Notes: generated by a model not told the origin, from the letters alone. 64,000 bases of DNA from Akkermansiaceae bacterium (GCA_903827375.1 CAIKHZ010000040.1:470-64469), one strand, 5' to 3'; numbered from the stretch's first letter, positions 3,861 through 43,261 are shown. Numbers and translations are program-made.

Positions 3861-3954
3861 TAGGCCGAATTCGCACGCCGGAACCCCGTTGGTTCCGCCG
3901 CTCTACCTGAATGCGCGCAGCCTGCGGCGTTCATCAATCCAACCCATCACTCTT

Positions 3955-17111: not shown

Positions 17112-18983
17112 ATGAAATCCACCCTTCTGGCCCTAGTCGCACTGCTGTCCGCATCGATCCACGCCGCCGAATTTCACGTCGCAACCACCGGCGACGACAC
17201 CCAGCCCGGCTCCCTAACGGCCCCGCTGCGCACGATCCAACACGCCGCCGTCCTCGCCCAAGCGGGCGACGTCATCACCGTGCACGCCGGCGTCTATCGA
17301 GAACGCGTCAATCCGCCCCGCGGCGGGGAATCTGACGCCAAGCGCATCGTCTATCAAGCCGCTCCAGGTGAGAAGGTGGAGGTCAAGGGCTCGGAAGTGG
17401 TCAAGGGATGGGTCAAGGTCCAGGAGGACGTCTGGAAGGTGAGTGTGCCTAACACCTTGTTCGGTTCCTTCAACCCCTACAGTGACCTGATTCACGGCGA
17501 TTGGTTCTGGGACCGGGGCCGGGCGCATCACACGGGTGCCGTCTATCTGAATGGCGAATGGCTTGCCGAGGCCGCCAAACTCGACGAGGTACTCAAGCCC
17601 ATCGGCCAGGCCCCCCGGTGGTTCGGCCAGGTGGACAACGATGGAACCACGCTGTGGGCGCAGTTCAAGGCCATCGACCCTAACGAGCAACTCGTCGAAA
17701 TCAACGTCCGCCAAACGGTTTTCTATCCGGACAAACCGGGCCGCAATTTTCTCACCGTGCGCGGCTTTATGATGCGCCAGGCTGCCACCCCGTGGGCCCC
17801 GCCGACGGCGGAGCAGATCGGCTTGATCGGCAGCCACTGGAGCAAGGGCTGGATCATCGAAGATAACATCATTTCGGATTCGGCCTGCAGTGGGTTGAGC
17901 TTGGGCAAGTACGGTGACGAGTTTGATAACAAGTCGTCCAATTCGGCTGAGGGCTACGTAGGCACGATCCGCCGCGGGCTGGACAACGGTTGGAGCAAGG
18001 ACTCGATCGGGCATCATATTGTGCGAAACAACACCATCTCGCACTGCGGCCAGACGGGCATTGTCGGCAGTCTTGGCGCGGCCTTCAGCCAGATTATCGG
18101 CAACACAATTCATGATATCCATGTCTGGCGGGTGTACGACGGTTGCGAGCAGGCCGGCATCAAATTCCACGGGGCGGTTGATACTGAGATTCGCGGCAAT
18201 CACGTCTATCGGGCATACCGCGGGCTGTGGCTCGACTGGATGGCTCAGGGCACCCGAGTCACCTCCAACCTGTTCCATGATAACAGTGAGGAAGATATGT
18301 ATGTGGAGGTCAATCACGGCCCGTTTCTTGTGGATAACAACCTCTTCCTGTCACACCGAAGCCTCTGGGATATGTCCGAGGGCGGATCCTATGCACACAA
18401 TTTGCTAACCGGAAAAATCGACAATTGGTATGACATGGGGCGGCTCACTCCCCACTTGCAACCGCACTCGACGGCTATCGTTGGCTTGACCATCACGCAG
18501 GGCGGAGATAATCGTTTTTTCAACAATATTTTCGTCGGACAAGGACTCCCCAGTGATGCTCCCGTGTGGACCGGCGACCCCAAAAAGAGCATCAGTGGTT
18601 GCGGCCTCTGGGTGTACGATGCTAGAAACTTCACCCTGCTAACCGGCGGAAACGCCTATTTCAATGGGGCCCGACCCTGCCGCAACGAGGCTACACCGCT
18701 GACACTGCCGGAAGTCGATCCCAAGATCAAACTCACTGAAAAAGAGCACCATATCTATCTTGATCTGACGCTCGGGCAGGCGATGCACAAGGCGAGCACC
18801 GCTATGGTGACAACTAACACGTTAGGAAAATCTCGCGTCTCGGGCCTGGCTTATGAGAACCCGGACGGATCACCATTGAAAATTGACAGAGACTATTTTG
18901 GCAAGCCACGGGATCCGGCCACTCCCACTGTCGGCCCGTTTGAAAACCTAGGCCCCGGCTCGCTCAACCTCAAGCTCCGCTGA
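17112..18983 (+). CDS. Secreted parallel beta-helix glycoside hydrolase, GH120 (beta-xylosidase XylC)-like
   Basis: Signal peptide; GVYRERVNP, HHTGAVYLNG, AATPWAPPTAEQIGLIG..WSKGWIIEDN, AGIKFHGAVD, GLWLDW.AQGTRV and EVNHGPFLVDNN match my recollection of GH120 proteins. Confidence 0.8.
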   Translation: MKSTLLALVALLSASIHAAEFHVATTGDDTQPGSLTAPLRTIQHAAVLAQAGDVITVHAGVYRERVNPPRGGESDAKRIVYQAAPGEKVEVKGSEVVKGWVKVQEDVWKVSVPNTLFGSFNPYSDLIHGDWFWDRGRAHHTGAVYLNGEWLAEAAKLDEVLKPIGQAPRWFGQVDNDGTTLWAQFKAIDPNEQLVEINVRQTVFYPDKPGRNFLTVRGFMMRQAATPWAPPTAEQIGLIGSHWSKGWIIEDNIISDSACSGLSLGKYGDEFDNKSSNSAEGYVGTIRRGLDNGWSKDSIGHHIVRNNTISHCGQTGIVGSLGAAFSQIIGNTIHDIHVWRVYDGCEQAGIKFHGAVDTEIRGNHVYRAYRGLWLDWMAQGTRVTSNLFHDNSEEDMYVEVNHGPFLVDNNLFLSHRSLWDMSEGGSYAHNLLTGKIDNWYDMGRLTPHLQPHSTAIVGLTITQGGDNRFFNNIFVGQGLPSDAPVWTGDPKKSISGCGLWVYDARNFTLLTGGNAYFNGARPCRNEATPLTLPEVDPKIKLTEKEHHIYLDLTLGQAMHKASTAMVTTNTLGKSRVSGLAYENPDGSPLKIDRDYFGKPRDPATPTVGPFENLGPGSLNLKLR

Positions 18984-21809: not shown

Positions 21810-22883
21810 ATGTCCGATTCCCCCTCAGATTTTCCAGCCGAGAACGTGGTCACCAAGCACCTTCTCGAGCAACTGCGCCGCCATCCTAAACGCGTCGTAT
21901 TCACCGAGGGCGAGGACCTCCGCATCCTCAAAGTCGCTGCTCACCTCGTCAAACAGGAAGCCGTCGCCCCCATCCTCTTGGGCAACCGCGATCGCATCCG
22001 TGCCCTAGCCGCCGCACACGGAGTCCCGCTCACCTTCATCCATATCGTCGATCCGCCCACCGCCACCGATTTCGGGCTGTTCTGCCGACGCATGGAAAAC
22101 ATGGCCCGCTACCGCACGCTTCAAGCGGCCAATCCGGCGGAAATTGTCGCCCGCCCGCATTATTTCGGCGCTTTGATGGTCCAATACGGGCAAGCTGATG
22201 CCATCGTCGGTGGCAACCAATCGATGCCTGCGGCCTTTTTCCGAGCTTTGATTCAGACGATCAAGCCGCTCCCTCATGTCGCCAAAATCTTTGCCACCAG
22301 CCTGATCTTGGGTGCCAACCTCAAGCACCTCGGCAACGAGGGCGTCCTGTTCCTTGCCGATACCGGTCTCATTCCCAACCCAACCGTCGAAGACCTCGCT
22401 GCCATCGCCCTCGAAACCGGAAAGCTCGCCCGCCACTTCCTCGGCCGCCCCCCACATGTCGCCATGCTCAGCCACTCCAACAAGGGCTCAGCCAGCACCC
22501 CCGATGCCAAACGCATGGCCGCCGCCGCCGCCCTCGCCCGTGAGCAAGCCGCTGCCGAATTTCTCGAAATTGAGATCGAAGGCGAGCTGCAAGCTGATGT
22601 GGCTATCGACCCGACAGCCGCAGAAACCAAGCTGCCCGGTGCGGAATCGCGCTCGTCCGCCGACGTGCTGGTGTTTCCCAATCTGGATGCCGCCCACATC
22701 TCACTCAAGCTCCTCCAGCACCTCGCCGGTGCCCAGGTCTATGGCCGGATCATCCTTGGCCTCTCGCGTCCTGCCGCTCAAATCCCCCTCGCTGCCTCCC
22801 TCGACACCATTTTCGGCACTACCGCAGCCGTCGCCGTTGAGGCCATCAAATTCCACCAGCTTTACCCTGACTCCGACTTCTAA
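21810..22883 (+). CDS. pta: Phosphate acetyltransferase (PTA_PTB family)
   Basis: KRVVFTEGED.RIL, VAMLSHS, EGELQADVA, VLVFPNLDAAHISLKL and GRIILGLSRP. Confidence 0.85.
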   Translation: MSDSPSDFPAENVVTKHLLEQLRRHPKRVVFTEGEDLRILKVAAHLVKQEAVAPILLGNRDRIRALAAAHGVPLTFIHIVDPPTATDFGLFCRRMENMARYRTLQAANPAEIVARPHYFGALMVQYGQADAIVGGNQSMPAAFFRALIQTIKPLPHVAKIFATSLILGANLKHLGNEGVLFLADTGLIPNPTVEDLAAIALETGKLARHFLGRPPHVAMLSHSNKGSASTPDAKRMAAAAALAREQAAAEFLEIEIEGELQADVAIDPTAAETKLPGAESRSSADVLVFPNLDAAHISLKLLQHLAGAQVYGRIILGLSRPAAQIPLAASLDTIFGTTAAVAVEAIKFHQLYPDSDF

Positions 22884-23737
22884 GTCCGCTCAATCGGCAG
22901 TCCGGTGATCTGGGCGATGATCTCGGGGGCAATGCCTGCCGCTTTCATTCCCGCCGCCGTCTCGAGCAAAGTCTCGGCCTTCCCCTCGGCCTTCCCCTCG
23001 GCGAATTTCCCACTCAGCAGGCTACGCTCGATCCTCACGGCGTCCCAAAATCCGTCATAGAGGGCGAGTTGTTCGCGTGTGAAACCGCATTCCTCGGCGA
23101 TGCCCAGGGCCTGACGCAGCGGCTCGTTGATCCCGACCTGGGCGCTGAATTCTTCCACTGAAAGATGCCCCTGACTGCCCGCATCCCCAGCTTCCCGCAG
23201 GAATTTGAGCCAGGCCCAGCGCAGTTTGCGCGCATCCTGCGGGTTGGTTTCACGGTATTTGGGCAATTCCACGAAAATCAGGCGCAATCCCTCAAGCACC
23301 CGCTGCGGGTTGCCGATTTCCACAATCTGATAGTCATGGTAGTAGGCATCTGGATCGGGATCGAAGGTGGCATCCAACAAGCTCAGGCCCCAGACCGGAC
23401 AGAGCAGATCGTAGCTCTCGCTTTTTTCCAACTGTCGCACGTAGGCCTTGCTAGCGTTGAAGAGCACCCTTTGCAGAAACGAGCCGGTCCATTGCATCTG
23501 CATTTCCACGATAAACTGGCGGCCGCTAGCATCTTTGCAGCGCACATCGACGATGCTGCTTTTGATGACCGGGATGTCCGGCACCTGCTCGCTGGGCAAA
23601 TACTCCAGCGAAGCGATGTATTGGCTCTCGTCCGAAAACGGCAACATCCCATTGAGAAAATTCCGCAAAATCTCCGGGTGCTCACCGAAAATCCGCTTGA
23701 ACACCAAGTCACTGCGCGGATCAAGAAAATGTGCCAT
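22880..23737 (-). mobile_element. Rpn family / PD-(D/E)XK nuclease 'transposase' gene
   Basis: LDPRSDLVFKRIFG, VDVRCKD..GRQFIVEMQ, IFVELPK, W..FL, and C-terminal EGKAEGKAE..A.GM..AGI..E.IAQITGL. No terminal inverted repeats seen. Confidence 0.88.
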
Positions 23738-23886
23738 GTCCCCAACAGGATGACTCACTGACGGCTGCTGTCAAGCCGACGGATCTGGACAAACCCAGCC
23801 TTGCTCATCAAACGCCCTGCCTACCCGCCCGAGGTTAGTTATGTTAGATTGACTTGGCCACCCCCGTCATTACATTCGGCCCGTTG

Positions 23887-30359: not shown

Positions 30360-30596
30360 GGGCTGCCAGATTGAAGCGCTTTCCCGCCCACTGACAAGTA
30401 CAGATCTCATCCGATTGTCCAGTGGAGGCAGTGTGGTGATGGGCGATGAATACTCATCGCAATCAGTAGTTATTCAAGCAATTTTCATAAGTGTCGGGCA
30501 TGAATTCTCGATTTTTTCCCATAGATTAGGTGAAAAATACTGATTTTTTTGTATTTGTGCCTTGACGTGAGTTGAAACCAAGAACACGCTTGGATC

Positions 30597-31103
30597 GTGA
30601 GTGCGGCAGTAATCAGAGACTCAATGCCTGAAGGGCAGATCGGGAATGACCGCAGGAACGGTGGGGCAAAGCATCCGCTACAGAGGAGATGGGTGGACGT
30701 GCATTCTGACGTACAGGACAGTCACGCGGAAATTTTGACGGGAGCGGGCCTGCTGCTGGCGACGTTGCTGGTTATGGTCTTGAGTGCGGTGCTGGTGTGG
30801 TTTGCCTTCTTGCGTGAGAACCAAGTATTCTGGACCAATGCTGGCGGCTATCCGATATGGTTGCGCGATTTGGTTCTGTGGACTTACATACCGTTGCTCG
30901 GCGTCGCCGGTCTGAGTCTGATGGCGCTGAGCATGGCATGTTCTTCTCGAATCTGCCGCTCGAAGCGATTTTTCGCCGTTGAGGGGTTGCTGTTGCTGAT
31001 GGGTTGGGGATTGTTAGCTACCTCTGGCGGCATTGCCTTTAGCAACAATATTGTCAATATCATCGACGGCCGGGACTTGCACTATCACCCAACCTCTCTA
31101 TAA
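30597..31103 (+). CDS. Hypothetical membrane protein (about 3 TM)
   Basis: Three hydrophobic segments; ends 11 nt before the TPR gene. Start uncertain. Confidence 0.55.
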   Translation: MSAAVIRDSMPEGQIGNDRRNGGAKHPLQRRWVDVHSDVQDSHAEILTGAGLLLATLLVMVLSAVLVWFAFLRENQVFWTNAGGYPIWLRDLVLWTYIPLLGVAGLSLMALSMACSSRICRSKRFFAVEGLLLLMGWGLLATSGGIAFSNNIVNIIDGRDLHYHPTSL

Positions 31104-31114
31104 TAGACGGCCCG

Positions 31115-33895
31115 ATGCCGTTCGATCCCGCCCAGTTTGCACAAGATCCCGCCGCCACGCAGACCCTGGCCTGGATGCGGGAAGGGCGCTGGCGCAAGGC
31201 TCGCGATGCCGCCAAAGAATTGGTTAAGCGTGAGCGTGAACGTTACATCCCTTTGCTCATCGAAGCTAACGTAGGATTGACACGCGAAATGTTTGGCAAG
31301 GGGCTGCTGAAAGAGGCGGCTACTGTTGTGGAGTACCTCGCAACCATCGCGCCAGCGTCGTTGGTAGCAGGGTTGCGGGCGGAGTTGGCGGCTCCCGTGA
31401 TCAAGCCCAGCGCGCCGGATCCCGTCAAGGCTGAGGCGGCTGAATGGTGGGCGGCCGCCCTGCGAGTGGACGAGGCGGGAACGGCGGCAATTTCACTGAC
31501 GGATCTAGCGGCCGTTGATTTGTTAGTAACTGCTGCCTTGCTGCCGTCTGTGGAGGATGGTGACGAGCGTGAACTGCGATTGGCGCGGGAGTTGGCGGCG
31601 GTGCGGGCTGCCTGTTCGGCGACGGGTGACGGGCATTGGGATGCGGCGCGTGAGGCGTTGCAGGGCTTGCCCCGCCAATCGGTGTTTCGCAATTGGCGCT
31701 TTTTTTTGCGCGGACTGAGGTGTTTTTTTGAAGATGAACCTGACACGGCCCGGCAATGCTTCGGCGAATTGCCGCCGCATGGAGCGCTGGCCCGCGCAGC
31801 CCGGGCGTTCGACCCCGCACTGGTGCCGGCCGGGCCGCTGGCCCCGGTGAGCGCACGCGTGCCGCTGTATTTGGCGGGCACCGGTCAGCCTGCGGCATGG
31901 AGCGGGCCGCTTGTGGCGGCCACTGCGGCGTGGAAGGCGGGCAAGCGTGTGGAGTCGTTCGAAGGGTTGCTGGCAGGCATGAAGGGGGCGTTTCCGGCCA
32001 TCGCTCCGGGGTTGCCAGCATGGCTCACCAAAACCACGTTGCCGTACCGGACGCGCATGAATCGAGTCGAGTGCGAAGCCGCAGACACCTTGATGGATCG
32101 ACTCGGACTCGATCGCGGCGGCAAAAGACTCCCATCACTCGAGGCGCTCCTCGCTGTGATGCAGCCCATGTGCTTGGCTGAGGCTGATCTAATGCCATGC
32201 TCCATTTTGGACCGGTATTGGCGCAGCGTCATCGAATTGTGGAACCGCTGCGAGGGGCCCAATCCGCTGCGTGATGCGGTGGCTTGGGAGTGGCTCGGCG
32301 AAAATTTAAGCGACATGACCGCTCATCTGGGTCCCGCCAAACCCCCTAGGAATACGCCACCAGACTTTGGCAGGGCGGTCAAGGCCTACGAAAATGCGGT
32401 GGAAGCGGATCCTTCCAACGAAACTGCGGCGCTCGGCTTGCTCACCCTTGTGCAGCGCTCAGGCGATCTCAAGGCTCACAAGCGCTTGCTGGACGACCTG
32501 TTGCAACGATTTCCCCGCAACAAGCCGTTGCTGGTTGCCGCCGCCGCGCAGTCCTCCAAGGACAAGGCGTTCGACAACGCCTTGGTCCAATTGCGCGCGG
32601 CTCTGGCCATCGATCCGCTCGACAAAGACATCAAGGGCGCCATCATGATCGCCTTGGCCAGTCAGACCCGCGAATTGCTGAGTAAAAAGCGCCCTGTGGC
32701 TCAACAATGGGCCGCCATGGAACCCCTGTTGGAGGACCGCCCGCCACGCAAACACTTGATGCTGTCGCGCTGGATGGCTCGGATGAGCCAAGCCCTGCTC
32801 GACCCCGAACCCGGCACCGCGTTGCAAGCCCGCGAAGATGCCGTGCGCCTAGCTCCCTCACTCCTCGAATGCCTGTTGCTGGAGGATTGGCTCGCTATTG
32901 CCTATAGAATCACCCCGCGCCCTGAGTGGCTTAAGGAGTGGAAGGCTGCCATCAAACCCGGAGCACGCGACTGGGTGCTGCTCCTCGCCGTGATCGATCA
33001 GCACGCCTTCATCTCTCAAATCAAAGAATGGGGCAAAGCGATGAACACCCGTGCATGCGGCCAAGTACTCGATATCCTCGCCACTCTGATTGGGAAAAAT
33101 CTGAAAAAGGATCCCGCCGGATTGATCGCGTTTCTGGATCGCACCGCGGTGCTGGAAAAAGGCATCACCCAGCACGCCAGAGATGTTATCGATTGTTGCA
33201 TGCGGGATGTGACTGACGAGCTGGACGAGAACGTCGATCCCTCAAATAAAAAGTTAGATCCACGCTTGCGCCTGGCGTCGTTGATCATGGATGAGCGCAG
33301 CGGTGAATGCTTCTATATACCGGAGCACGAGTTTCTGGGGGATCTAGACAGCGTCGCAGCAGCAGCAGCGGCACTCGGGATGCCGGAGATTGCCGCACGC
33401 GCCAAAGCTCTGCGCGAGAAGGTGACAGGTCCCTCGCGCTCGGATTCCTACGACGACCCCTTCGGCCGCTCAGGATTCCCATACGACGATGATGACGATG
33501 ACGATGACGATGACGATGATGATGATGATGATGATGACGATGACGAGGACGAGGACATGGGTGACGATGTCATTGGCGGCATTCCGCATCTCGCCGAACT
33601 TCTCGAGGCCGCAATCAAGAGCGGCGACTCCCAGGCCCTCCACTCAATCCGCTCCGGCCTGCTCAGCTTCGGTTTGCCTAAGAACGAAGTGGACCAAATC
33701 ATCAATAGTCTAACATTGAAATACAAGCTGACGGGTTTGCCTCCAAGTGGCACCAAACCCAAACCGGTAAAACCAGCCGTTAGAAAAAAGCCGTCGCCCC
33801 AGCCATTACCCCCGCCCTCGCCCCCGCCAAAAAAGAAACCGAAGCCGGGCAAGCCGGCGCCGCCGGTGAATCCCGATCAGCCCGAACTTTTCTAA
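31115..33895 (+). CDS. Large helical TPR-like protein with poly-Asp tract and Pro/Lys tail
   Basis: 926 aa. TPR-like segments (AVKAYENAVEADPSN, ALVQLRAALAIDPLD), D20-EDED tract and PKPKPVKP..PPPKKKPKP tail. Confidence 0.75.
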   Translation: MPFDPAQFAQDPAATQTLAWMREGRWRKARDAAKELVKRERERYIPLLIEANVGLTREMFGKGLLKEAATVVEYLATIAPASLVAGLRAELAAPVIKPSAPDPVKAEAAEWWAAALRVDEAGTAAISLTDLAAVDLLVTAALLPSVEDGDERELRLARELAAVRAACSATGDGHWDAAREALQGLPRQSVFRNWRFFLRGLRCFFEDEPDTARQCFGELPPHGALARAARAFDPALVPAGPLAPVSARVPLYLAGTGQPAAWSGPLVAATAAWKAGKRVESFEGLLAGMKGAFPAIAPGLPAWLTKTTLPYRTRMNRVECEAADTLMDRLGLDRGGKRLPSLEALLAVMQPMCLAEADLMPCSILDRYWRSVIELWNRCEGPNPLRDAVAWEWLGENLSDMTAHLGPAKPPRNTPPDFGRAVKAYENAVEADPSNETAALGLLTLVQRSGDLKAHKRLLDDLLQRFPRNKPLLVAAAAQSSKDKAFDNALVQLRAALAIDPLDKDIKGAIMIALASQTRELLSKKRPVAQQWAAMEPLLEDRPPRKHLMLSRWMARMSQALLDPEPGTALQAREDAVRLAPSLLECLLLEDWLAIAYRITPRPEWLKEWKAAIKPGARDWVLLLAVIDQHAFISQIKEWGKAMNTRACGQVLDILATLIGKNLKKDPAGLIAFLDRTAVLEKGITQHARDVIDCCMRDVTDELDENVDPSNKKLDPRLRLASLIMDERSGECFYIPEHEFLGDLDSVAAAAAALGMPEIAARAKALREKVTGPSRSDSYDDPFGRSGFPYDDDDDDDDDDDDDDDDDDDDEDEDMGDDVIGGIPHLAELLEAAIKSGDSQALHSIRSGLLSFGLPKNEVDQIINSLTLKYKLTGLPPSGTKPKPVKPAVRKKPSPQPLPPPSPPPKKKPKPGKPAPPVNPDQPELF
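33485..33556 (+). repeat. GAY trinucleotide repeat encoding 20 Asp followed by EDED
   Basis: Read directly: gac gat gat gac gat gac ... with an internal pure (GAT)7 run, then gag gac gag gac. Confidence 0.95.
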
Positions 33896-33899
33896 CATC

Positions 33900-34244
33900 A
33901 TGAACCCCTTTCTTGTGCTTGAAGTCGAGCTGGATGCCACGGATGCGGAGGTGCGAGCCGCCTATCAAGCGTTGTTGCGGCGTTATCCGCCCGAGCAGCG
34001 GCCTCGGCAGTTCCAACTGATCCAGGAAGCCTATCAGATGTTGCGGACCGAGCGCGAACGCTGGCGCTGGCGCCTTCTGCACCTCGAACCCAGCACCGAC
34101 GGACCCCTCGAGGCACTTGAAAATTTTTCCCAGCTGCCGGGGCGTCTGCGCCCGCCGGGAGCCACTGCGCTGCGCGACTTGGTGCGTAGCTGTGGGGCCG
34201 CCGCGATGCGTGAGCAAGCCGCAGCGCCGAAGCCCGTCAAGTGA
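33900..34244 (+). CDS. Small J-domain-like protein lacking the canonical HPD (has YPPE)
   Basis: NPFLVLEV..DATDAEVRAAYQALLRRYPPEQRPRQFQLIQEAYQML is a J-domain helix pattern. Confidence 0.8.
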   Translation: MNPFLVLEVELDATDAEVRAAYQALLRRYPPEQRPRQFQLIQEAYQMLRTERERWRWRLLHLEPSTDGPLEALENFSQLPGRLRPPGATALRDLVRSCGAAAMREQAAAPKPVK

Positions 34245-34302
34245 ACGTGAAACACTTCCTAACAACCATAGCTTACCCCTCCCGCTTGCCAACCAAATTG
34301 CC

Positions 34303-35001
34303 ATGCTTATGCCTGTGACTGCAGCTGATTTTTCCCCATACTCCGACGATGCCAGTGCGCCCGATCCGGACGTCGATGACGATGCCTACGAGGACGAGGA
34401 AGAACCCTCCGCCGTCACGTTGCACGACCTCCATGAGGAATTGGCCGCCAATTCCACCGAAACACGCCGGAGCACCCGGCGCATGCTCGACGTACTCAAG
34501 AATTTCGGCTCGGTGTTGGATGCACTTTCCACCACCGTAAACGACACTCACAAGGCCATTCGGGCACTGCCGACTGCCGCCAGCCGCCAATCGGAGGGTA
34601 GCGAACTGCCCCGCGAGTGGGCGCTGGCACTGGTGGAATTGGCGGACCGCATCGAGCGGGTGACCGACGGATTTGCCCGCCCTCCTGCAGCCCGAGCCAG
34701 CTGGTGGCCGGGAGCCCGCAAGTCGCTCGCCGCATGGCGTGACGCCTGGGCGATGCAGGCTGATGCGCTCGGCATCCTGCGCAGTCATCTCGGCGTTTTG
34801 CTCCAGCGGGCCAGTCTCAAACGCCTCGATGTGGCGGGCAAATCCTTCGATCCTAACACGATGACGGCACTGGAATCCGCCGTCGATCCGAGCCTGCCCG
34901 ATCACACGGTGCTGGCCGAAATACTTCCCGGCTGGCAGCATGCCGATGGCCAATTGCTGCGCCCGGCTCAAGTCCGGGTGTCACGCCTCAACCCACGCTA
35001 G
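34303..35001 (+). CDS. GrpE-like nucleotide exchange factor
   Basis: C-terminal GKSFDPNTMTAL..PDHTVLAEILPGW..GQLLRPAQVRV matches the GrpE beta-domain; coiled-coil N-terminal half. Confidence 0.8.
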   Translation: MLMPVTAADFSPYSDDASAPDPDVDDDAYEDEEEPSAVTLHDLHEELAANSTETRRSTRRMLDVLKNFGSVLDALSTTVNDTHKAIRALPTAASRQSEGSELPREWALALVELADRIERVTDGFARPPAARASWWPGARKSLAAWRDAWAMQADALGILRSHLGVLLQRASLKRLDVAGKSFDPNTMTALESAVDPSLPDHTVLAEILPGWQHADGQLLRPAQVRVSRLNPR

Positions 35002-35037
35002 AACAAATTCCCATCACTCACCACTTCCCTTCCAACC

Positions 35038-36900
35038 ATGACTCAAACTCAGCAAATTGTCGTCGGTATTGACCTCGGCACCACCAATTCGACCGTCGCC
35101 GTGGTTCAGGATGGCGTGCTTACCGTCATTCCAGTGCGTGGTCAGCCGACCATGCCCAGCGCCGTTGGGATCGATCCGGCCGGCCGCCTGATCGTCGGCC
35201 AAGCTGCCAAAAACCAATCTGCCTCGGCCCCTGAAGATACCGTGCTTTCGATCAAGCGACTGATGGGCACCGATCACCAAGTGGGCTTGGGCGGCAAGAC
35301 GTATCGGCCCGAGGAAATCAGTGCCTTGATCCTCGGTGAGCTGAAACAAGCCGCCGAAGCTCATCTGGGCCAAGCCGTGACCCAAGCGGTCATCACCGTG
35401 CCCGCATTTTTCAACGAGCGCCAACGACTCGCCACCCAAGACGCCGGACAACTCGCCGGCCTGGAAGTCCTTCGTATCATCAACGAACCCACTGCCGCCG
35501 CCCTTGCCTACGGGGCAGGCCAGTCCACAGGGTTCAAACACGAAACCCTCCTCGTCTATGACCTCGGTGGCGGCACCTTCGATGTTTCGGTTGTTAGAGT
35601 GGAGGACGGTATCGTCGAGGTCCGGGCCAGCCATGGTGATATCAACCTCGGCGGCGACGATTTCGATGAGGCACTGGTTTTACTAGGCGAGCAACGGCTC
35701 CGCGAGAAACACGGTGCCGCCGTTGGATTGCTGCCAGTCACTGCCCACCGTCGGCTCAAGAGCGCGATGGAAACTGCCAAAATCCAGCTCTCCGACGCGC
35801 CTTTTGCGAATGTGCGCGAGGAATATCTCACCGCCTCGTTGCATTTGGACACCGAGATTGATCGCCACGACTACGAGCGCCTGATCGATCCGTGGCTGCA
35901 CAAGACGCTCGATTGCCTCCAACGCACCTTGGCGGATGCCGGAATCACCGCCTCGGACCTCGACAAGGTCATGCTCGTCGGCGGTGCCACCCGCACTCCC
36001 GCCGTGCAGGCCTTGCTGATGCAACAGCTTGGCATGGAACCTCGCCACGAGATCGACCCGGATCTGGTGGTGGCGATGGGGGCCGCCATTCAAGGTGCAG
36101 CCCTCGCCGGCCAACCCGCCCCGGCTATCCTGGTGGATATTTCAGCCCACACATACAGCCTGCTCGTGCTCGTCGGTCACGGCATGTTCGGCGAAAAGAT
36201 CATGCAGTGCTGCCCTCTGGTTCGGCGTGGCACCGCGCTGCCGGTCGCCAAGGCGGACGTGTTCACCACCTGTACTGACAATCAAGCCGTCGTAGGCATT
36301 GAGGTATTCCAAGGTGAAAGTGAGCGCCCGGAGGACAACCTGCGGCTCGGTGAATTCGAAATCCAAGGTCTCTCCAGGGTGCCCGCCGGCAATCAGATCG
36401 TCGTCCAATTTCGCATCGACCTCAGCGGCCTGCTCACGGTTACCGCCACTGAAAAGCGCAGTGGCTTGGTCAAGTCGGTGACGATCGACACCGCCGGCCA
36501 GCACCGGATCAACCTGGATGCCGCCCGCACGAATCTGGCAGCCCTGTTCGCCGATCAAGAGGCGAGCCATCCCCAGCCCGCTGCCGAACGCTTCCGATCG
36601 CGCCCCGTCACCATCAACGACGAAGACGACGACTTCGACGATAGGGATGACGAAGACGACGAGGGAGATATCATTGATGTCGGCGATGCCCAAGAGGCCC
36701 CGGCCGGCCTCTTGGCCTCGGCCAAAAGCTTGCGCAACCGCGCGGAAAAATTGTTGAAGCGAGGCGTGGCAGAGTCTGACGCTGCGACCATCCACGCCAG
36801 TCTGGCCGAGGTGGCACCTGCCATCGAGGCGCGTGCCTGGCAATATCTGTCGGAGACGTTGGACACCCTGAGCGACCTGCTGTTTTATCTGGACGATTAG
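35038..36900 (+). CDS. Specialised Hsp70 (DnaK paralog)
   Basis: GIDLGTTNS, TVPAFF, RIINEPTAAALAYG, YDLGGGTFDVS, LGGDDFD, LVGGATRTP and FTTCTDNQ..V.IEVFQGE; the lid region is divergent and acidic. Confidence 0.92.
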   Translation: MTQTQQIVVGIDLGTTNSTVAVVQDGVLTVIPVRGQPTMPSAVGIDPAGRLIVGQAAKNQSASAPEDTVLSIKRLMGTDHQVGLGGKTYRPEEISALILGELKQAAEAHLGQAVTQAVITVPAFFNERQRLATQDAGQLAGLEVLRIINEPTAAALAYGAGQSTGFKHETLLVYDLGGGTFDVSVVRVEDGIVEVRASHGDINLGGDDFDEALVLLGEQRLREKHGAAVGLLPVTAHRRLKSAMETAKIQLSDAPFANVREEYLTASLHLDTEIDRHDYERLIDPWLHKTLDCLQRTLADAGITASDLDKVMLVGGATRTPAVQALLMQQLGMEPRHEIDPDLVVAMGAAIQGAALAGQPAPAILVDISAHTYSLLVLVGHGMFGEKIMQCCPLVRRGTALPVAKADVFTTCTDNQAVVGIEVFQGESERPEDNLRLGEFEIQGLSRVPAGNQIVVQFRIDLSGLLTVTATEKRSGLVKSVTIDTAGQHRINLDAARTNLAALFADQEASHPQPAAERFRSRPVTINDEDDDFDDRDDEDDEGDIIDVGDAQEAPAGLLASAKSLRNRAEKLLKRGVAESDAATIHASLAEVAPAIEARAWQYLSETLDTLSDLLFYLDD

Positions 36901-36906
36901 TCCGCA

Positions 36907-38160
36907 GTGAGCCCCGATTATTTTATCGATGTCCGACGGGTTTCCGTGCAGCCTGCCGGCACCACCATGTTTGTCATTTCCCTTCCAGCCCTGCTGCGCA
37001 ACACCGCGATTTTGCGCGATGTGAAGGAGGCTGCCGGCTGTCGGCTGGTGCTGGCGCTCAAGGGGTTTGCGTGCTGGAAGACGTTTCCCTATCTCCGCGA
37101 TGATCTGGACGGCTGCTGCGCCTCGGGCTTGTGGGAAGCCAGACTCGCCCGCGAGCATTTCCAAAAACATATCATCACCTATTCGCCCGCCTATGATGAG
37201 GCCGATGTGAGCGCCCTGTGCGAATTCACCGATCATCTGGATTTCAACTCGCTCTCCCAGTGGCAGCGCTTCCGCGAACAAGTGCTCGCCCACCCTCGCT
37301 TTCGCAGCGGCCACTTGCTCTGCGGATTGCGCATCAACCCTGAGTGCTCGACGGGCTCCACCCCGATGTACGACCCCTGCGCCGCAGGCTCGCGCCTCGG
37401 CATCACCGCCGACCAACTCGCGGGCACCGACCTAACAGGCATCTCCGGCCTGCACTTCCACACGCTTTGCGAGCAAAACTCGGACGACCTCGAGACCACC
37501 CTCGCCGCCGTCGATGAGAAATTCGGCCACTGGTTGCGCCAACCGCAATTCAACTATCTGAACATGGGCGGCGGCCACTGGATCACCAAACCGTTCTACG
37601 ACCGCGAGCGGCTCATTCGCATCGTCCAGCAAGCCCGCCAGCGCTTCGGAGTCGAGGTCTGGTTGGAGCCGGGCGAGGCCGTCGCCATCCACAGCGGGGT
37701 GTTGCGTGCCAGCGTCATGGATGTGATAGAATATGCCGGCCAGCGCAACGCCATCCTGAATGTGTCGGCCACCGCCCACATGCCCGATGTGCTGGAAATG
37801 CCCTACCGGCCCGACGTATTCTTGGTCGATGCCGCCCCTTGTTGTGCCCAGCCAGCTGCCCAGCCAGCAGTGCGCATCGCAGGCGAAAACTATCATCTGG
37901 CTGGCGACTCCGGGCCATGGCTTTACAGGTTGGGTGGGCCGACCTGCCTGGCCGGCGACGTCATCGGGCAGTTTGCCTTTCCGCGAGCTCTTCGAGTGGG
38001 CGACACACTGGTGTTTGACGACATGGCTCACTACACGATGGTCAAGACGACACTGTTCAATGGCGTGAAGCATCCGCCCATCGTGCTCCAGCATGCCGAC
38101 GGCCGCCTTGAAACCCTGCGCGAATTTGCCTACGAGGATTTCCAAGCTCGCCTAGCGTAG
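36907..38160 (+). CDS. nspC: Carboxynorspermidine/carboxyspermidine decarboxylase
   Basis: LALKGFA (PLP Lys), GCCASGLWEARLA, GLRINPE, YDPCAAGSRLG, GLHFHTLCEQ, NMGGGHWIT, LEPGEA and HYTMVKTTLFNG. Confidence 0.9.
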   Translation: MSPDYFIDVRRVSVQPAGTTMFVISLPALLRNTAILRDVKEAAGCRLVLALKGFACWKTFPYLRDDLDGCCASGLWEARLAREHFQKHIITYSPAYDEADVSALCEFTDHLDFNSLSQWQRFREQVLAHPRFRSGHLLCGLRINPECSTGSTPMYDPCAAGSRLGITADQLAGTDLTGISGLHFHTLCEQNSDDLETTLAAVDEKFGHWLRQPQFNYLNMGGGHWITKPFYDRERLIRIVQQARQRFGVEVWLEPGEAVAIHSGVLRASVMDVIEYAGQRNAILNVSATAHMPDVLEMPYRPDVFLVDAAPCCAQPAAQPAVRIAGENYHLAGDSGPWLYRLGGPTCLAGDVIGQFAFPRALRVGDTLVFDDMAHYTMVKTTLFNGVKHPPIVLQHADGRLETLREFAYEDFQARLA

Positions 38161-38317: not shown

Positions 38318-38689
38318 TTATTGGCCGGCAGGAGGGGCAGGTGGCGGGGTGCCTTTACCCGGGCCGCGACCTTTGCCTTTGGCACCGGCTTTATGCTCCG
38401 GACGGAACGCCTTGAATTCTTCCAGCGAGACCGTGCCATTGGCATCCGTGTCCATCTTCTTGAAGATCTCTTCAGCCTTGGCTTCGTTGCGCTTGGCCAT
38501 TGGCGAGGCTTTGAACTCATCAAGGCTCAACTGGCCATCACCATTGGTGTCGATCTTCTTGAAAACTTCTTCGGGGGGCGGACGCTTGCCTTCAGGCGCA
38601 CCTTTCGGTGGTCCTGCCGGCTTGTCTTGGGCGAACGATAGCGTGGTGGCGATGGCCAGAGCGCTGAGTGTGGCGATGGTTGCTTTCAT
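38318..38689 (-). CDS. Small exported EF-hand protein
   Basis: Signal peptide MKATIATLSALAIATTLSFA; two EF loops, DTNGDGQLSLDEF and DTDANGTVSLEEF. Confidence 0.85.
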   Translation of the reverse strand: MKATIATLSALAIATTLSFAQDKPAGPPKGAPEGKRPPPEEVFKKIDTNGDGQLSLDEFKASPMAKRNEAKAEEIFKKMDTDANGTVSLEEFKAFRPEHKAGAKGKGRGPGKGTPPPAPPAGQ

Positions 38690-38863
38690 GACTGTGCTTG
38701 TTTTCTGTTGGTTGGGTGGCGGTGGCATGGGCGCCGCTCCGCGACATGCGGGGAAACTCCACAAAGCCGTCCGAGTTGCACCAGATTTTATCAAATCTTG
38801 GTTCACTAAAATATTTTCTTCGGAGAAATTGCCCAACACAGTGGGGATTTTATGATTGAAACG

Positions 38864-38897: not shown

Positions 38898-39227
38898 ATG
38901 GCAACCAAGCTCAAACCGATTAAAGAGAAACTGACCAAGACCCAAATTCTGGACCAAATCGCCGACAGCACGGGACTCGTTCGCAAACAAGTTGCGGCGG
39001 TGCTCGAGAGTCTGACCGAGGTGATCGAAGCCCACGTCAAGAAAAATGCCGTTGGTGAATTTGTGCTACCAGGCCTGCTGAAGATCAGTACCGTGCGCAA
39101 ACCGGCGGTCAAGGCGCGCAAGGGGATCAATCCCTTCACCAAGGAAGAAGTGACGTTCAAGGCCAAGGCCGCCTCAACCGCAGTGAAAGTGCGGCCCCTG
39201 AAAAAGCTTAAGGACATGGCGATCTAA
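38898..39227 (+). CDS. HU/IHF family DNA-binding protein
   Basis: LTKTQIL..IA..TGL.RKQV, GEFVLPGLLKI, ARKGINPFTKEE and KVRPLKKLKD. Confidence 0.9.
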   Translation: MATKLKPIKEKLTKTQILDQIADSTGLVRKQVAAVLESLTEVIEAHVKKNAVGEFVLPGLLKISTVRKPAVKARKGINPFTKEEVTFKAKAASTAVKVRPLKKLKDMAI

Positions 39228-39435: not shown

Positions 39436-42400
39436 TTATCTGGCAGTTGTGGCAGCCGGCGGGGGCACGCTGCCAGAGGCGACGGCTGGTTGTCCCTCAG
39501 CGGACATCACAACGCGGAAGCCGACGTTGTACACCGCCTGCCATGGCCGGTAGGACAAACGCGTGGCGGAGCCGGCGTGCAGCGGACGATCGAACCACGA
39601 GCCACCCCGAACGGTTTTCATGGCGTCGGATTTGGCATCGTTGCGGCCATCGGTATCCACGTACGGATACGGCCTGTACGAGGTGAGCGTCCACTCGGCG
39701 GCGTTGCCATGCATGTCCTTGAGGCCAAAGGCATTTGGCTGATAGCGGCCGACGTCGGCGGTCACTCCGCAGCCGTCGTTGAAGCGGCGGTCTCTGGGGT
39801 GCCACGGGGGAGCATCACCGCGGTCCAATTGGCTGAGCGAGGCATCGGCCAGGTTGGCGAACTTGGAGAAATCCGTGTCGCGATTGCCATAAGAATACGG
39901 CGTCTCGGTACCAGCGCGGCAGGCCCATTCCCATTGCGATTCCGTGGGCAGGGTGAATTTCTTGCCGGTCTTTTGTGAGAGCCACTTGCAGAATTCCATA
40001 GCTTCGTTCCAGGTGACGCGCACCACTGGTTGGTTAGGGTTATTGATAGAGATGCCACGTTCACCCTGATCCTTGCCAGTCATGCTGATCACACCGCTGT
40101 CATGCTTGGTATCGAAAGCGGCGTATTGGGCATTGGTTATCTCAGTGGCACCCAGATAGAACGGCTTGTCGATCTTCACTTTGGCAACCGGGACTTCATC
40201 AGCCTCACCGGCGGCGTTACCCATGACAAATTCACCCGCTGGAATCAAGGCCAGATCCAGCACCTTGGCGTCTGCCAGTTCGATCTTGAGGGTTGGTGGC
40301 AGCTTGGTGGCAGCTTGGCGTTTGGCGGCCTCGGCTGTATCAAACGGCCAGCCGGCGATGCGGATGTCTTGCTGCTGGCGGGGTGGCAACGGCGCCGGAG
40401 CAATGAACTTGATAGGCTCCTTGTTGGCCGGTTCCGGAATGGCTTCCGGATCACCGCAGCGGTTGGCATATTTCGCGAGCATGTCCATGCGCCGTTGCAT
40501 CACCGGCCGGGCACCATTGACGTGTTCGGTCCAAGTGCCGTGGTCGGGCACGTTGAGGTCGATCCAAGTGATGAGGCGATCCCAAGCCTCGGCGTCGAGC
40601 TTCACGTTGTAGTGGCCGCGTTTGAGCATTTGCATCAGTTCGCTGGTATCGACGTGATACTCCAGGGGCTTTTGCAGATGATAGTCACTTTCCGGACCCG
40701 GACGGCGCACAAACGGATGCAACGCAATGTAAGATTTAGTGAAGTTGCGCTCGCCGTTGTCTTTCTTGGCGGTGAAGTCAGCCACTGCAAGGCCGTTGAC
40801 CGGTTGGGCACCTTCCTTGTGGCAACCCACACAGTATTTGTCTAACACCGGTTGCACTTCACGTTTGAAATCGAAGCCGCGAGCCGGGCCATACCACGGG
40901 GTGATGGGAGAGGCCGGCCGCTGGCTGGCAAGGGTGGGCTTGCTCGGAGGGATCGCGTTCTGGGTGTCGTGGCAACCAATGCATGAGAAACTCTCACCAG
41001 GCATCGCCGTGTACCAACTGCGCATCAACTGGATCGCCTTGCCTTCCGCGTCTAACGGTTGAACCGCAATCGGCGTGTTGGCCGGCACCTTGAAGCTGGC
41101 CGAGCCGTCGGCCTCCACCGGCACGGTGCCGAGGATCCGATGGACGTCCCACGGGCCGTCGATGCCCACATTGATATGGCCGCCCATGCCCTGATAGGCA
41201 AAGTGGGGTTCATAGAGGCGCATTTTCTTGACGGTGCCGCGCGGCACGTCCTTGAGCCCTGGTCCCTGATAGATGTCTGCCAGATAGACAGTGGCATCGG
41301 TTTTGGTAAGATCGACGCGGTCGGGAATGACCGGTGGGCGGGTGGACTTGCGCAGAGGGATGGGTTCAAACATGACAAAGCCGTCCTGTTCCTTGATGAG
41401 GGTCATGTTGTCGAACACATCCACGAGATAGACGCCCCATTTGGCACCTTGAGTGAGTTGGCTGGAGACCAGGAAGTACTTGTCGCTGAGCGGATAGGGA
41501 TGCAGGAACTTTGGCCACGAGCCATCGCAGAGGCCGTCAGCCACGATGGGTTTGACTTCCTGGCCGGCACCGGGGATGCGTTGCACCACACCATCGGCCT
41601 CAAAGCGGCCCTTGGCGGGGTCGAACAAAATCAATTCGCCCATGCGAGGCACGCCGTGGTGGCCGGAGATGACGGAGATGAGTTTGGTTGGGTGGTTAGG
41701 CACGGGTTTGGCATAGAAGAACGAGTTAGGCCAATAGGAATTACTACCGTAGTAGGACATCTGGCCGGAGCCGTCCGGGTTCATGCGGAAGAGGATGCGG
41801 GTGAAGTAATGAGGGGTGTCAGAGTATTCCCAGCGGGTGTAGAGGACGGTGCCATCATTGAGCACGGTCGGGCACCAATCCTGGTCCTGATCGAAGCACA
41901 ACTGGCGGATGCCTGTGCCATCGGCATTCATTTTGCAGATATTGGCCACTGGGTCGCCGCCGCCCACACAGGGCACACCCTGGAAGCCGCGGGTGGAGGT
42001 GAAGAGGATTTGGCCGCTGGGCAGATAGCAAGGTTCGAAGTTGTCCACATCGGGTTCATCGCCCGGGGTCACCTGGCGAAGTCCGCTGCCATCGGCCTTG
42101 ATTTCCCAGACCTGCCAGCGGTCATTTTTGCCGGGCATCGAGAACAGCAGCTTGTCGCCGCCGAAATCCAGTTTCATGTCGCCCACAAAGCCATGGTTTT
42201 CGGGCTTCAGGAGGGTGGTGAGTGTGCCCTGCGGGCCGATTGGGGAGAGCACGTCGATTTCGTTATCGCACTGTTTGCCGATGGAGGCGTTGGATTGCCA
42301 GTTTTGCGGGAGTTCGAGGTTGTTAGCGCTGCGTTTGACCAGCAGCATTTTATCGAAATCTATCACAGGGTTGGCGAGCAATGCATCGCGCTGGAAGGTG

Positions 42401-43158
42401 GCAAACGTGTTAGCCAGTTCTTGGATGCGTTGTTTGGCCCCCTGATCACCGCCGGCCAGGGCGGTTTCCGCGTCCTTGATGGATTTTTCCAACTCGGCGA
42501 GGCGGGCTAGCAGGTCCTTACCCTTGGGGAATTTGGCACCATTGGTGGCGATCATATCTTCGAGCGCATCGCGGGTGGTTGGCACGCCGCGCAGCGCTGG
42601 AAACTCCTTGGCGCTGAGAGGTGCAAGGCGGGTTTGGCTGGAGGCAAGTGCAAAGTAGAACCCATGACTTCCGCTTTGATTGTGGATCTTGAGCAGCAAC
42701 TTGTTTTCGCCGGCTTGGAGGTCGAGGATAACGGTGGCGCTATCCGGCGAGACGCCGCGAGCGACGTCTTGGGAGAGGAGTTTTTTGGCGTTGAGCCAGA
42801 CTTCCAGTCCATCATCGCTGCCGAGACTCACGGATGCTTGGGCCGGTTTCTCAACGGTGAGCGTCCGGAACAGATAGGTCGAGACTCGCCCGTCGGCGGG
42901 CAATTCCTGAGCCTTGCCGTCGCTCCATTCAGGGTGCGCCGTCCACAGGGACTTGCCGTCGGCAGCTTTGGCTGCTAGGTCAATCCCCTTTTCCGGGAAG
43001 AACACATCACCAAATGCCTGCGCCTTCAAGGGGCCGGTTGTGTGCCACGGACCGAGCTTCACCTGTGACGTTGCCGCCAACAAGTTGCCGCTGGCCGCCG
43101 CAGTTCCTATCAAAGCCAGCACAGCGGCCTTGCCAATCATCGATTTCAAGTTTTTCAT
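39436..43158 (-). CDS. Large exported protein: PA14-like domain + beta-propeller + HzsA-middle-like domain (two CxxCH) + FGE-sulfatase (SUMF1) domain
   Basis: Signal peptide. LGSDDGLEVWLN..GENKLLLKI; NFEPCYLPSGQILFTSTR; GSASFKVPANTPIAVQPLDAEG..PGESFSCIGCH; YCVGCH; IPAGEFVMG, LPTESQWEWACRAG, PNAFGLKDMHGNAAEW and RGGSW. Confidence 0.8.
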   Translation of the reverse strand: MKNLKSMIGKAAVLALIGTAAASGNLLAATSQVKLGPWHTTGPLKAQAFGDVFFPEKGIDLAAKAADGKSLWTAHPEWSDGKAQELPADGRVSTYLFRTLTVEKPAQASVSLGSDDGLEVWLNAKKLLSQDVARGVSPDSATVILDLQAGENKLLLKIHNQSGSHGFYFALASSQTRLAPLSAKEFPALRGVPTTRDALEDMIATNGAKFPKGKDLLARLAELEKSIKDAETALAGGDQGAKQRIQELANTFATFQRDALLANPVIDFDKMLLVKRSANNLELPQNWQSNASIGKQCDNEIDVLSPIGPQGTLTTLLKPENHGFVGDMKLDFGGDKLLFSMPGKNDRWQVWEIKADGSGLRQVTPGDEPDVDNFEPCYLPSGQILFTSTRGFQGVPCVGGGDPVANICKMNADGTGIRQLCFDQDQDWCPTVLNDGTVLYTRWEYSDTPHYFTRILFRMNPDGSGQMSYYGSNSYWPNSFFYAKPVPNHPTKLISVISGHHGVPRMGELILFDPAKGRFEADGVVQRIPGAGQEVKPIVADGLCDGSWPKFLHPYPLSDKYFLVSSQLTQGAKWGVYLVDVFDNMTLIKEQDGFVMFEPIPLRKSTRPPVIPDRVDLTKTDATVYLADIYQGPGLKDVPRGTVKKMRLYEPHFAYQGMGGHINVGIDGPWDVHRILGTVPVEADGSASFKVPANTPIAVQPLDAEGKAIQLMRSWYTAMPGESFSCIGCHDTQNAIPPSKPTLASQRPASPITPWYGPARGFDFKREVQPVLDKYCVGCHKEGAQPVNGLAVADFTAKKDNGERNFTKSYIALHPFVRRPGPESDYHLQKPLEYHVDTSELMQMLKRGHYNVKLDAEAWDRLITWIDLNVPDHGTWTEHVNGARPVMQRRMDMLAKYANRCGDPEAIPEPANKEPIKFIAPAPLPPRQQQDIRIAGWPFDTAEAAKRQAATKLPPTLKIELADAKVLDLALIPAGEFVMGNAAGEADEVPVAKVKIDKPFYLGATEITNAQYAAFDTKHDSGVISMTGKDQGERGISINNPNQPVVRVTWNEAMEFCKWLSQKTGKKFTLPTESQWEWACRAGTETPYSYGNRDTDFSKFANLADASLSQLDRGDAPPWHPRDRRFNDGCGVTADVGRYQPNAFGLKDMHGNAAEWTLTSYRPYPYVDTDGRNDAKSDAMKTVRGGSWFDRPLHAGSATRLSYRPWQAVYNVGFRVVMSAEGQPAVASGSVPPPAATTAR

Positions 43159-43261
43159 AAGTAAATCTCTAGCAAACACATTCCATCTGGGAAGGAAATA
43201 CTTCCGAAGCGATGCCCCGGAAGTTTCCCATAAAATTCAGCAACAATGCTGGATCAGCGTC

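Follow-up and report, generated by a model that had tools for sequence, protein, structure and literature searches.

We analysed a stretch of 64,000 nucleotides from an Akkermansiaceae bacterium (GCA_903827375.1 CAIKHZ010000040.1:470-64469; this whole stretch is called the window below) and found at 31115-36900 a conserved four-gene module on the plus strand, which encodes a large alpha-solenoid protein, a small J-like protein, a GrpE-type exchange factor and a specialised Hsp70. These genes very probably constitute a dedicated, orthogonal Hsp70 chaperone cycle. The best explanation of the module as a whole, at a probability that we put a little below even, is that this cycle is organised by the solenoid protein as its scaffold and tethered to the beta sliding clamp (DnaN) and to DNA. 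An earlier note on this DNA, made from the sequence, had already proposed a self-contained orthogonal Hsp70 system, and the conserved four-gene order, the unrelated flanks and the separate clade of the Hsp70 bear this out. The same note had cast the large protein as client or sensor of the system; given the coupling of its gene to that of the J-like protein and a conserved motif on its basic disordered tail, it now appears to be a scaffold or targeting subunit rather than a passive client or sensor.

Our comparative approach showed that the module is conserved as a unit. A profile search with the solenoid protein retrieved 323 representatives at E<=1e-30 among 1.84 billion proteins, and its homologs form 74 clusters at 90% identity, nearly all of them 830-930 amino acids (aa) long. 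Fifty loci were taken from species-representative genomes. In a tblastn comparison with the window proteins, all of the approximately 36 loci with enough downstream DNA carried the order solenoid, J, GrpE and Hsp70, at solenoid identities from 87% down to 26%. The earlier note had made its proposal depend on this order, which is held down to 26-35% scaffold identity. The module solenoids are about 850-930 aa long and their gene always comes first; it is separated from the J-like gene by 4 nt in the window, and the two genes overlap or lie a few nt apart in most relatives. An all-against-all BLAST of 372 flanking open reading frames (ORFs) revealed no family common to distant loci, and the flanks change from locus to locus, with G6PD, CutA, SHMT and RpiB in one relative (L001), sulfatases and GlgB in another (L002) and M42, GH3 and NspC in the window. 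The window cluster itself comprises five ORFs in one orientation between a divergent M42 peptidase gene and nspC, with gaps of 11, 4, 58 and 36 nt in this order. For the four module genes, the positions, common orientation and gaps of 4, 58 and 36 nt reported previously agree with our ORF coordinates, and Pfam and NCBIfam support the gene assignments. The fifth ORF, which precedes them, had been described as a gene for a protein with three transmembrane (3-TM) segments; it is present with its three hydrophobic segments but is not part of the conserved module. Its homologs are confined to the closest relatives L005 and L022, and the conserved unit therefore consists of four genes, with the 3-TM gene as a lineage-specific accessory outside it.

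Carriers of the module include Akkermansiaceae, Luteolibacter, Haloferula, Prosthecobacter and the cultured Verrucomicrobium sp. BvORR034 and BvORR106 (L029 and L030), together with Chthoniobacterales, Opitutales and Limisphaerales/subdivision 3, which makes four orders of Verrucomicrobiota in all. The module also occurs in metagenome-assembled genomes (MAGs) labelled Gemmatimonadaceae (L035, L037, L040, L051 and L054) and Acidobacteriota (L049, L050 and L053). The Hsp70s of these two sets form label-specific subclades at 81% and 73% identity, respectively. Because several independent MAGs of the same label form their own Hsp70 subclades, random mis-binning is disfavoured and, going by the phylum labels, the spread beyond Verrucomicrobiota may be real. 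In one subclade, but not in the window, the Hsp70 gene is immediately followed, or overlapped at its stop codon, by a gene for a protein of about 100-110 aa whose N-terminus bears a CxxC…CxxC zinc-ribbon (L033 13558-13890, L037 11431-11766, L039 13632-13940 and L043 5664-5960), and this protein may represent a fifth component there.

The Hsp70 (620 aa; 35038-36900; Pfam HSP70, 456.6 bits) is, judged from its sequence, a paralog separate from housekeeping DnaK, HscA and HscC. Its best matches in PDB and NCBIfam are to DnaK, at scores below both NCBIfam cut-offs for that protein (471.1 bits against 648 for TIGR02350 and 466.4 against 822.55 for NF001413); it likewise stays below the cut-off for HscA (405.7 against 708.55), and the Prokaryotic Genome Annotation Pipeline (PGAP) labels it only as 'Hsp70 family protein'. 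Members of the family are 35-40% identical to E. coli DnaK, 33-37% to HscA and 32-36% to HscC, compared with at least 49% among themselves. A neighbour-joining tree built from the nucleotide-binding domain (NBD) unites the cassette Hsp70s in one monophyletic group in 200 of 200 bootstraps. Relative L001 encodes a second Hsp70 about 4 kb 3' of its cassette, which pairs with E. coli DnaK, again in 200 of 200 bootstraps, and is 60-63% identical to it versus 45% to the cassette copy. The grouping with housekeeping DnaK that the earlier note had held up against its own proposal thus did not occur, either in the NBD tree or in the sub-cut-off scores. On the L001 contig (ENA contig_9985, 230 kb), several genes, among them the GrpE-like gene, SHMT and the housekeeping dnaK, are split by frameshifts (e.g. 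at 11091-11736, 13790-14910 and 17518-18715); since these splits look like assembly indel errors, gene lengths from this contig are unreliable.

From the N-terminus, the NBD of the module Hsp70 is followed by a variant linker and by the beta part of the substrate-binding domain (SBD-beta), which has an insertion in loop L1,2; then come a disordered acidic insert and, at the C-terminus, a helical bundle. In 33 of 33 members, the residues for catalysis (D8, K70, E171, D194, T199 and D201) and for allostery and the interface with J proteins (P143, R151, R167, N170, T173, Q378 and D393) are identical. The protein keeps all residues for ATP hydrolysis and interdomain allostery and is a predicted functional ATPase. 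The linker reads A363-ILVDISAH-371 (nt 36124-36150), as noticed previously, in place of VLLLDVTP; across the family it conforms to [A/S]-I-L-[V/I]-D-I, which retains the hydrophobic-Asp pattern. Relative to DnaK, residues 76-101 and 209-212 are deleted and R56 is replaced by N; K55 and E267 are retained, and the preservation of their salt bridge and of a portion of the subdomain IIB loop is consistent with a need for an exchange factor. In the AlphaFold2 (AF2) model, with a mean predicted local distance difference test (pLDDT) score of 79.5, a variable acidic disordered segment takes the place of lid helix B. This corresponds to the acidic lid insert of the earlier note (about nt 36568-36702; pLDDT <50 over aa 487-551). 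At the C-terminus an invariant LSDLLFYL(E/D)D (nt 36838-36897) coincides with a confidently modelled terminal helix (601-619). We considered whether the terminal …LFYLED docks into the TPR protein in the manner of a free EEVD-like tail and rejected this, since the terminus sits within the confident lid helix (aa 601-619, pLDDT about 90), LFYLED aligns to lid helix E of DnaK, and the three-TPR unit of the solenoid (aa 417-520) lacks the conserved Asn/Lys/Arg carboxylate clamp. The terminal helix could nevertheless serve as a docking surface. The window cluster and the related loci contain no isc, fdx or hscB genes. A search with the C-terminal half of the Hsp70 returned mostly gene fragments and was of little use.

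The partner proteins of the Hsp70 are also divergent. The J-like protein (114 aa; 33900-34244; Pfam DnaJ, 35.6 bits with a cut-off of 27.8) consists of a J domain (aa ~1-55) and a conserved C-terminal extension of about 50 aa with the pattern SP..AL..F..LPGR.RPPG..F..LL..C common to its orthologs. It matches the J domain only, without HPD, glycine/phenylalanine (G/F) region, zinc finger or client-binding domains, and no transmembrane segment is seen by eye in the ortholog alignment. The loss of HPD described previously is real: within Y29-P30-P31-E32, the residues P30-P31-E32 (nt 33987-33995) align to H-P-D of E. coli DnaJ. Every aligned ortholog carries [P/T/S/A]-P-[E/D] at this position, so that the proline and the acidic residue are kept and the histidine is lost. 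Given this uniformity, the replacement is a fixed trait of the family and not a sign of decay. The GrpE-type exchange factor (34303-35001; 232 aa from the start used by gene callers) reaches 44.4 bits in Pfam GrpE (cut-off 25.8) over its C-terminal beta-domain only, and at most 33 bits against NCBIfam GrpE equivalogs whose cut-offs are at least 137. In an alignment with E. coli GrpE, the beta-domain signature FDP..M.A...G...R.AQV.VS is kept, the helical part is remodelled and longer, and the N-terminus is acidic, in line with the previous description.

The solenoid protein (926 aa; 31115-33895) had been called a TPR protein. Its AF2 model (pLDDT 81) contains an uninterrupted all-alpha solenoid over aa 1-771, which upholds the general fold, but the canonical TPR sequence is limited to aa ~417-520. 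There, three repeats (32363..32674) give a weak match to TPR_19, the sole Pfam match of the protein, and this is also the only segment over which the family profile aligns with consensus TPR proteins, Tom70/71 and OGT. A Foldseek search against PDB returned only generic TPR superhelices (Ctr9, Ski3, OGT and APC/C) at a TM-score of about 0.2 and gave no functional lead. The most conserved patch of the solenoid lies near its N-terminus (W26-R-K-A-R30...K34...N52). Behind the solenoid follows a disordered acidic segment (aa 774-820, pLDDT <50) with a poly-Asp/Glu tract (aa 791-814; 33485..33556), then a three-helix domain (aa 823-872; 33581..33730), for which AF2 places helices at 823-836, 839-851 and 856-872 (pLDDT 72-87). 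The pattern L..(M/F)G(L/V)...(I/V)..A(I/L) of this domain is kept in homolog tails and by eye resembles a UBA-like pattern, to which the fold might be assigned. The protein continues with a disordered Lys/Pro-rich basic tail (aa 875-918; 33737..33868; pLDDT <50). Family-wide, the tail sequence is unalignable and its composition is characteristic (P 19%, K 13%, A 11%; median net charge +4 per 40 aa). In L001, L052 and P0018 the tail is made of AKKAAKK-type repeats, which we take to be comparable to the histone-H1-like DNA-binding tails of bacteria. The poly-Asp tract (GAT/GAC repeats) has 10, 12 or 20 and more Asp residues among otherwise near-identical contigs, which gives solenoid lengths of 917, 919, 921, 923 and 926 aa and suggests that the tract is slippage-prone.

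The disordered tail ends in N-P-D-Q-P-E-L-F-COOH (33869..33892), a candidate motif for binding to the beta sliding clamp, and the family consensus of this terminus is D-P-x-Q-phi-[D/E]-L-F-COOH. We counted the motif in 203 distinct full-length family tails and in a background of 521 flanking and Hsp70-family proteins. The exact ending Q..LF-COOH is present in 115 family tails and in none of the background proteins, and a penta- or hexapeptide variant within three residues of the end in 169 compared with two; such variants include QLDLFE, QPDLPF, QMDFLL and QMDFPL. In 102 of the 115 exact tails, D, E or N occupies position 3; the commonest residues at position 2 are L (39), P (26) and I (12), and the most divergent members end in QLDLF, QLELF or QLNLF. 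The bacterial clamp-binding motif has been defined as Q-phi-x-L-F with the consensus QL[S/D]LF, or as the hexapeptide Q-phi-x-L-x-L; its positions 1, 4 and 5 are critical, and natural examples such as QLDLF in Pol Y1 and QLELF in Pol I often lie at the free C-terminus (bioRxiv 10.64898/2026.05.27.728225). At the level of the peptide, the solenoid terminus matches this signature, with Q, L and F at positions 1, 4 and 5 and an acidic residue at position 3, and we put the chance that the motif tethers the scaffold to the clamp at close to even. In L009, an ORF 5' of the module (643-3939) looks by eye, from its N-terminal sequence, like NAD-dependent DNA ligase (LigA). It begins with the clamp-motif-like MAELDLF…, which may show the form of the clamp-binding motif in this phylum.

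Taken together, these features lead us to propose the following mechanism. The solenoid and the small J-like protein would form a split class-C J-domain co-chaperone, in which the solenoid would provide target binding and localisation, and the J-like subunit, docked on it, would set off hydrolysis of ATP by the cognate Hsp70, after which the Hsp70 cycle would be reset by the GrpE-like protein. The extension of the J-like protein and the invariant lid helix of the Hsp70 are candidates for docking to the conserved basic patch near the N-terminus of the solenoid. The C-terminal region of the solenoid protein, with its acidic stretch, three-helix domain, basic tail and terminal motif, would act as a flexible tether, the tail having affinity for DNA and the tip entering the protein-binding pocket of DnaN. 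The machine would thereby be concentrated at clamp-loaded DNA, such as replication forks and repair patches, where a protein complex at the DNA would be remodelled or dismantled, as is done by DnaK/DnaJ/GrpE with lambda O-P-DnaB and with plasmid initiators. Recruitment of this Hsp70/J-like/GrpE-like remodelling machine to DnaN-loaded DNA by the solenoid, with its motif as a genuine clamp binder and its DNA-affine basic tail, and the stripping or recycling of proteins there, is a tentative proposal that we rate somewhat below even. Such a clamp-tethered machine might, for instance, act on stalled polymerases, on nucleoid proteins or on partners of the clamp itself.

Several observations weigh against this proposal. 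The link to the clamp is a short linear motif alone, and about 17% of the family members do not have the terminal motif. The window motif, QPELF, has a proline at position 2, as do 26 of the 115 exact tails family-wide, although clamp motifs prefer an aliphatic residue there (bioRxiv 10.64898/2026.05.27.728225). The conserved D-P in front of the glutamine lies outside the published motif and could mean another partner. Among the 372 flanking ORFs, no gene for replication or repair is conserved beside the module, and the sequence was found in none of three tiny metatranscriptomes from a sample which holds the organism. Moreover, with its histidine missing, it is not certain that the J-like protein stimulates the ATPase of the Hsp70; to our knowledge, the HPD histidine is essential in all J domains that have been studied.

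The main rival explanation is a dedicated Hsp70 system without a link to DNA, in which the solenoid serves another cell process as a client-binding adaptor or is itself the regulated target there. The terminal motif and the basic tail would then be tethered to the module as a pseudo-substrate, or as a peptide on which its Hsp70, J-like or GrpE-like protein docks. We regard this as less likely than the clamp tether, while taking it seriously. Specialised DnaK systems with TPR-bearing J proteins do exist (PMC12288463; PMC9239167), and models could be found in the coupling of pili to the secretion of polysaccharides by cyanobacterial DnaK1/DnaJ3(TPR-J)/GrpE or Myxococcus SglK/StkA, or in the handling of membrane proteins by HscC/DjlC. 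The Hsp70 of the module has the HscC-type L1,2 insertion and the 76-101 deletion, and HscC favours positively charged peptides (PMC8215388), a preference which would fit a basic tail and an acidic lid insert; the D-P dipeptide, foreign to clamp motifs, points the same way. However, no pilus, polysaccharide or membrane-protein genes are conserved beside the module among the 372 flanking ORFs, and the 3-TM gene is limited to the closest relatives of the window. A free C-terminus with invariant Q, L and F and an acidic position 3 is the signature of a clamp motif and atypical for an Hsp70 site, which typically has a hydrophobic core of four to five residues. The tip of the scaffold could also mimic the C-terminal tip of the single-stranded DNA-binding protein SSB (D-D-D-I/L-P-F-COOH) and either bring the machine to proteins that interact with SSB or be a competitor of SSB; the module would then still be linked to DNA, by a route other than the clamp. 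The tip follows a long disordered linker as in SSB, and a minority of tails end in DLPF, ELPF or ELPL (P0030, P0031, P0048, P0065, P0226, P0236, P0277 and P0278), but neither the invariant Gln at -4 nor the (D/E)LF ending that prevails resembles SSB, and the scaffold linker is basic, whereas that of SSB is neutral and rich in Gly, Gln and Pro. We consider mimicry of SSB very improbable.

The earlier note had also raised an anti-phage or stress function with the TPR protein as sensor. Large repeat proteins are often sensors in defence systems and the module is self-contained, but in the PADLOC check that had been suggested (PADLOC-DB 2.0) none of the five proteins matched any family at E<=0.01. 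Furthermore, the flanks are housekeeping genes that vary between loci and are not conserved (pdxJ, acpS, M42 peptidase, nspC, HU, G6PD, SHMT, glgB and others), no effector-like domain such as a nuclease, protease, TIR or pore is present, and the single copy found across whole orders looks vertical rather than island-like. Relatives of the module are absent from IMG/VR viral contigs, which led us to reject a phage origin as well. A defence or sensing role is thus even more improbable than mimicry of SSB. Least probable of all is a divergent copy of the housekeeping dnaK-dnaJ-grpE heat-shock operon, which we count as refuted. It would explain why the same parts (Hsp70, J and GrpE) occur together and why DnaK gives the best PDB and NCBIfam matches, but the Hsp70 has sub-cut-off DnaK scores and a clade of its own, true DnaK is encoded elsewhere in relative L001, the J protein lacks HPD, G/F region, zinc finger and client-binding domains, and PGAP goes no further than the general family name. 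Regulatory elements of such an operon are missing as well: hrcA is absent alongside the module, and no controlling inverted repeat of chaperone expression (CIRCE) was found in the window with up to 3 mismatches allowed, as had been stated before.

Bacterial Hsp70 biology rests on three classes, DnaK, HscA and HscC. Among the systems built on them, HscC with DjlC and DjlB, encoded in E. coli by ybeS-ybeT-ybeU-ybeV-ybeW, likewise combines a specialised Hsp70 with cognate, non-interchangeable J proteins. HscC resembles the module Hsp70 in the deletion of DnaK residues 76-101 and of the 209-212 loop, in an L1,2 insertion of 7-9 residues and in a shortened lid (features listed in PMC8215388). DjlC has the same short-loop J layout as the J-like protein and reads HPE, and the E. 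coli hscC locus (L059, K-12 678000-686000) also holds ybeT with Sel1 (TPR-like) repeats, a parallel to the combination of repeat protein and variant J in the module. However, at 32-36% identity the module Hsp70 shows no greater likeness to HscC than to DnaK and, unlike HscC, retains the K55-E267 salt bridge together with part of the IIB loop. HscC is thought to be GrpE-independent (PMC8215388), whereas the module always carries a GrpE-type gene. In addition, DjlB and DjlC are membrane-anchored proteins of about 480 aa in contrast to the apparently soluble J-like proteins of about 100-115 aa, and the HscC system has neither a solenoid of about 900 aa nor a clamp-type motif. In the cyanobacterial DnaK1-DnaJ3-GrpE system, which couples the type IV pilus to polysaccharide, a non-housekeeping DnaK paralog, a TPR-containing J protein and GrpE likewise serve a specific machine (PMC9239167; PMC12288463). 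In contrast to the module, TPR and J are joined there in one chain (DnaJ3) and not encoded by separate adjacent genes, GrpE is shared with the housekeeping system instead of being a dedicated exchange factor, and the genes lie by pilBTC, a pilus context that the module lacks. Going by descriptions of DnaK1/DnaJ3, the module is set apart from it, and its scaffold tail adds the clamp-type motif.

Canonical DnaK-DnaJ-GrpE dismantles DNA-bound complexes such as lambda O-P-DnaB, P1 RepA and RepE (PMC8215388) and offers a functional analogy for the module. In replication, this housekeeping chaperone is recruited by contacts between DnaJ and client, whereas the module, by analogy, would be a paralog tethered by a clamp motif. 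The known binders of the beta clamp (Pol II, Pol IV, PolC, Pol Y1, Pol I, MutS and Hda) carry a terminal Q-phi-x-L-F or Q-phi-x-L-x-L on a flexible segment, and many family members have what read as exact QLDLF and QLELF peptides. We know of no clamp binder that is a chaperone component or a TPR solenoid. In eukaryotes, TPR followed by J, the same order as in the gene pair of the module, is found in DNAJC7 and DNAJC3. The EEVD-binding co-chaperones Hop, CHIP and Tom70 also bring a TPR module into an Hsp70 machine, although docking of the EEVD type is unsupported here.

The module belongs to none of the HscC/DjlC, DnaK1/DnaJ3/GrpE and canonical DnaK/DnaJ/GrpE systems, because its Hsp70 stays below the cut-offs for DnaK and HscA and is no more similar to HscC than to DnaK, and because the module has a dedicated GrpE-type gene and a separate solenoid. 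The earlier note had left room for a match to a characterised operon; we found no paper describing the module in the searchable literature. It represents a cleanly delimited fourth type of Hsp70 with its own exchange factor, a variant J-like partner and a large scaffold, and according to recent reviews most other DnaK paralogs are functionally unexplored (PMC13580251; PMC8215388). Moreover, xP(D/E) systematically replaces an HPD that has been supposed to be indispensable, which offers a natural test of the way in which J domains trigger Hsp70; if the J-like protein is active, it would be a working J-domain variant without the canonical histidine. If the terminal motif binds DnaN, the module would be the first chaperone system known to us that is hard-wired to the replication clamp, and thus a new functional category. 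This would add a chaperone to the 'tool-belt' of the clamp and provide a handle on the clearing of protein complexes from DNA in Verrucomicrobiota and some Gemmatimonadota and Acidobacteriota. The idea of a clamp tether is testable because cultured carriers exist, namely the two Verrucomicrobium strains mentioned above (BvORR034 and BvORR106).

The window represents DNA of about 60% GC from an uncultured verrucomicrobium of lake water; many lake and freshwater metagenomes contain the same or nearly the same sequence, and its closest labelled relatives are Akkermansiaceae and Verrucomicrobiota MAGs. The intergenic region that separates the cluster from the divergent M42 peptidase gene (30411..30596) has an AT-rich core, with a GC content of 32-36% at 30450-30600 versus about 60% elsewhere, in agreement with the AT-rich promoter region seen by the earlier note, and this core is likely to be the promoter region. 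A scan of 30411..30596 for the sigma-70 consensus gave nothing convincing, and the yield of promoter and terminator scans was no higher than expected from shuffled sequence. The 3-TM gene which follows (30597-31103, plus strand) encodes 168 aa from GTG 30597 or 159 aa from ATG 30624, the latter probably being the start used in the gene-calling pipeline, and its product has no match in Pfam, NCBIfam or PADLOC.

At the other end of the cluster, the Hsp70 gene is followed by nspC (36907-38160), which encodes carboxynorspermidine decarboxylase (TIGR01047, 452.8 bits) and probably starts at ATG 36967, with a gap of 66 nt, rather than at GTG 36907. The adjacency of the Hsp70 gene and nspC is common only to the window and its close relative L006. 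Further 3' lie genes for an EF-hand protein (38318-38839, minus strand), whose hydrophobic N-terminus looks like a signal peptide by eye, and for an HU-type DNA-binding protein (38898-39227, plus strand), a neighbourhood that is not kept in distant loci. The window also encodes two giant proteins of 1347 and 1247 aa with HZS_alpha middle domains (7440-11483 and 39436-43179, both minus strand), one with HEAT repeats and the other with an FGE-sulfatase domain. They are typical secreted or periplasmic proteins of the Planctomycetes-Verrucomicrobia-Chlamydiae (PVC) type and are unrelated to the module. Finally, a transposase-like gene of the PD-(D/E)XK nuclease family at 22880-23758 on the minus strand (PF12784, 126 bits) is the sole mobile-element-like gene among the ORFs scanned in the window.

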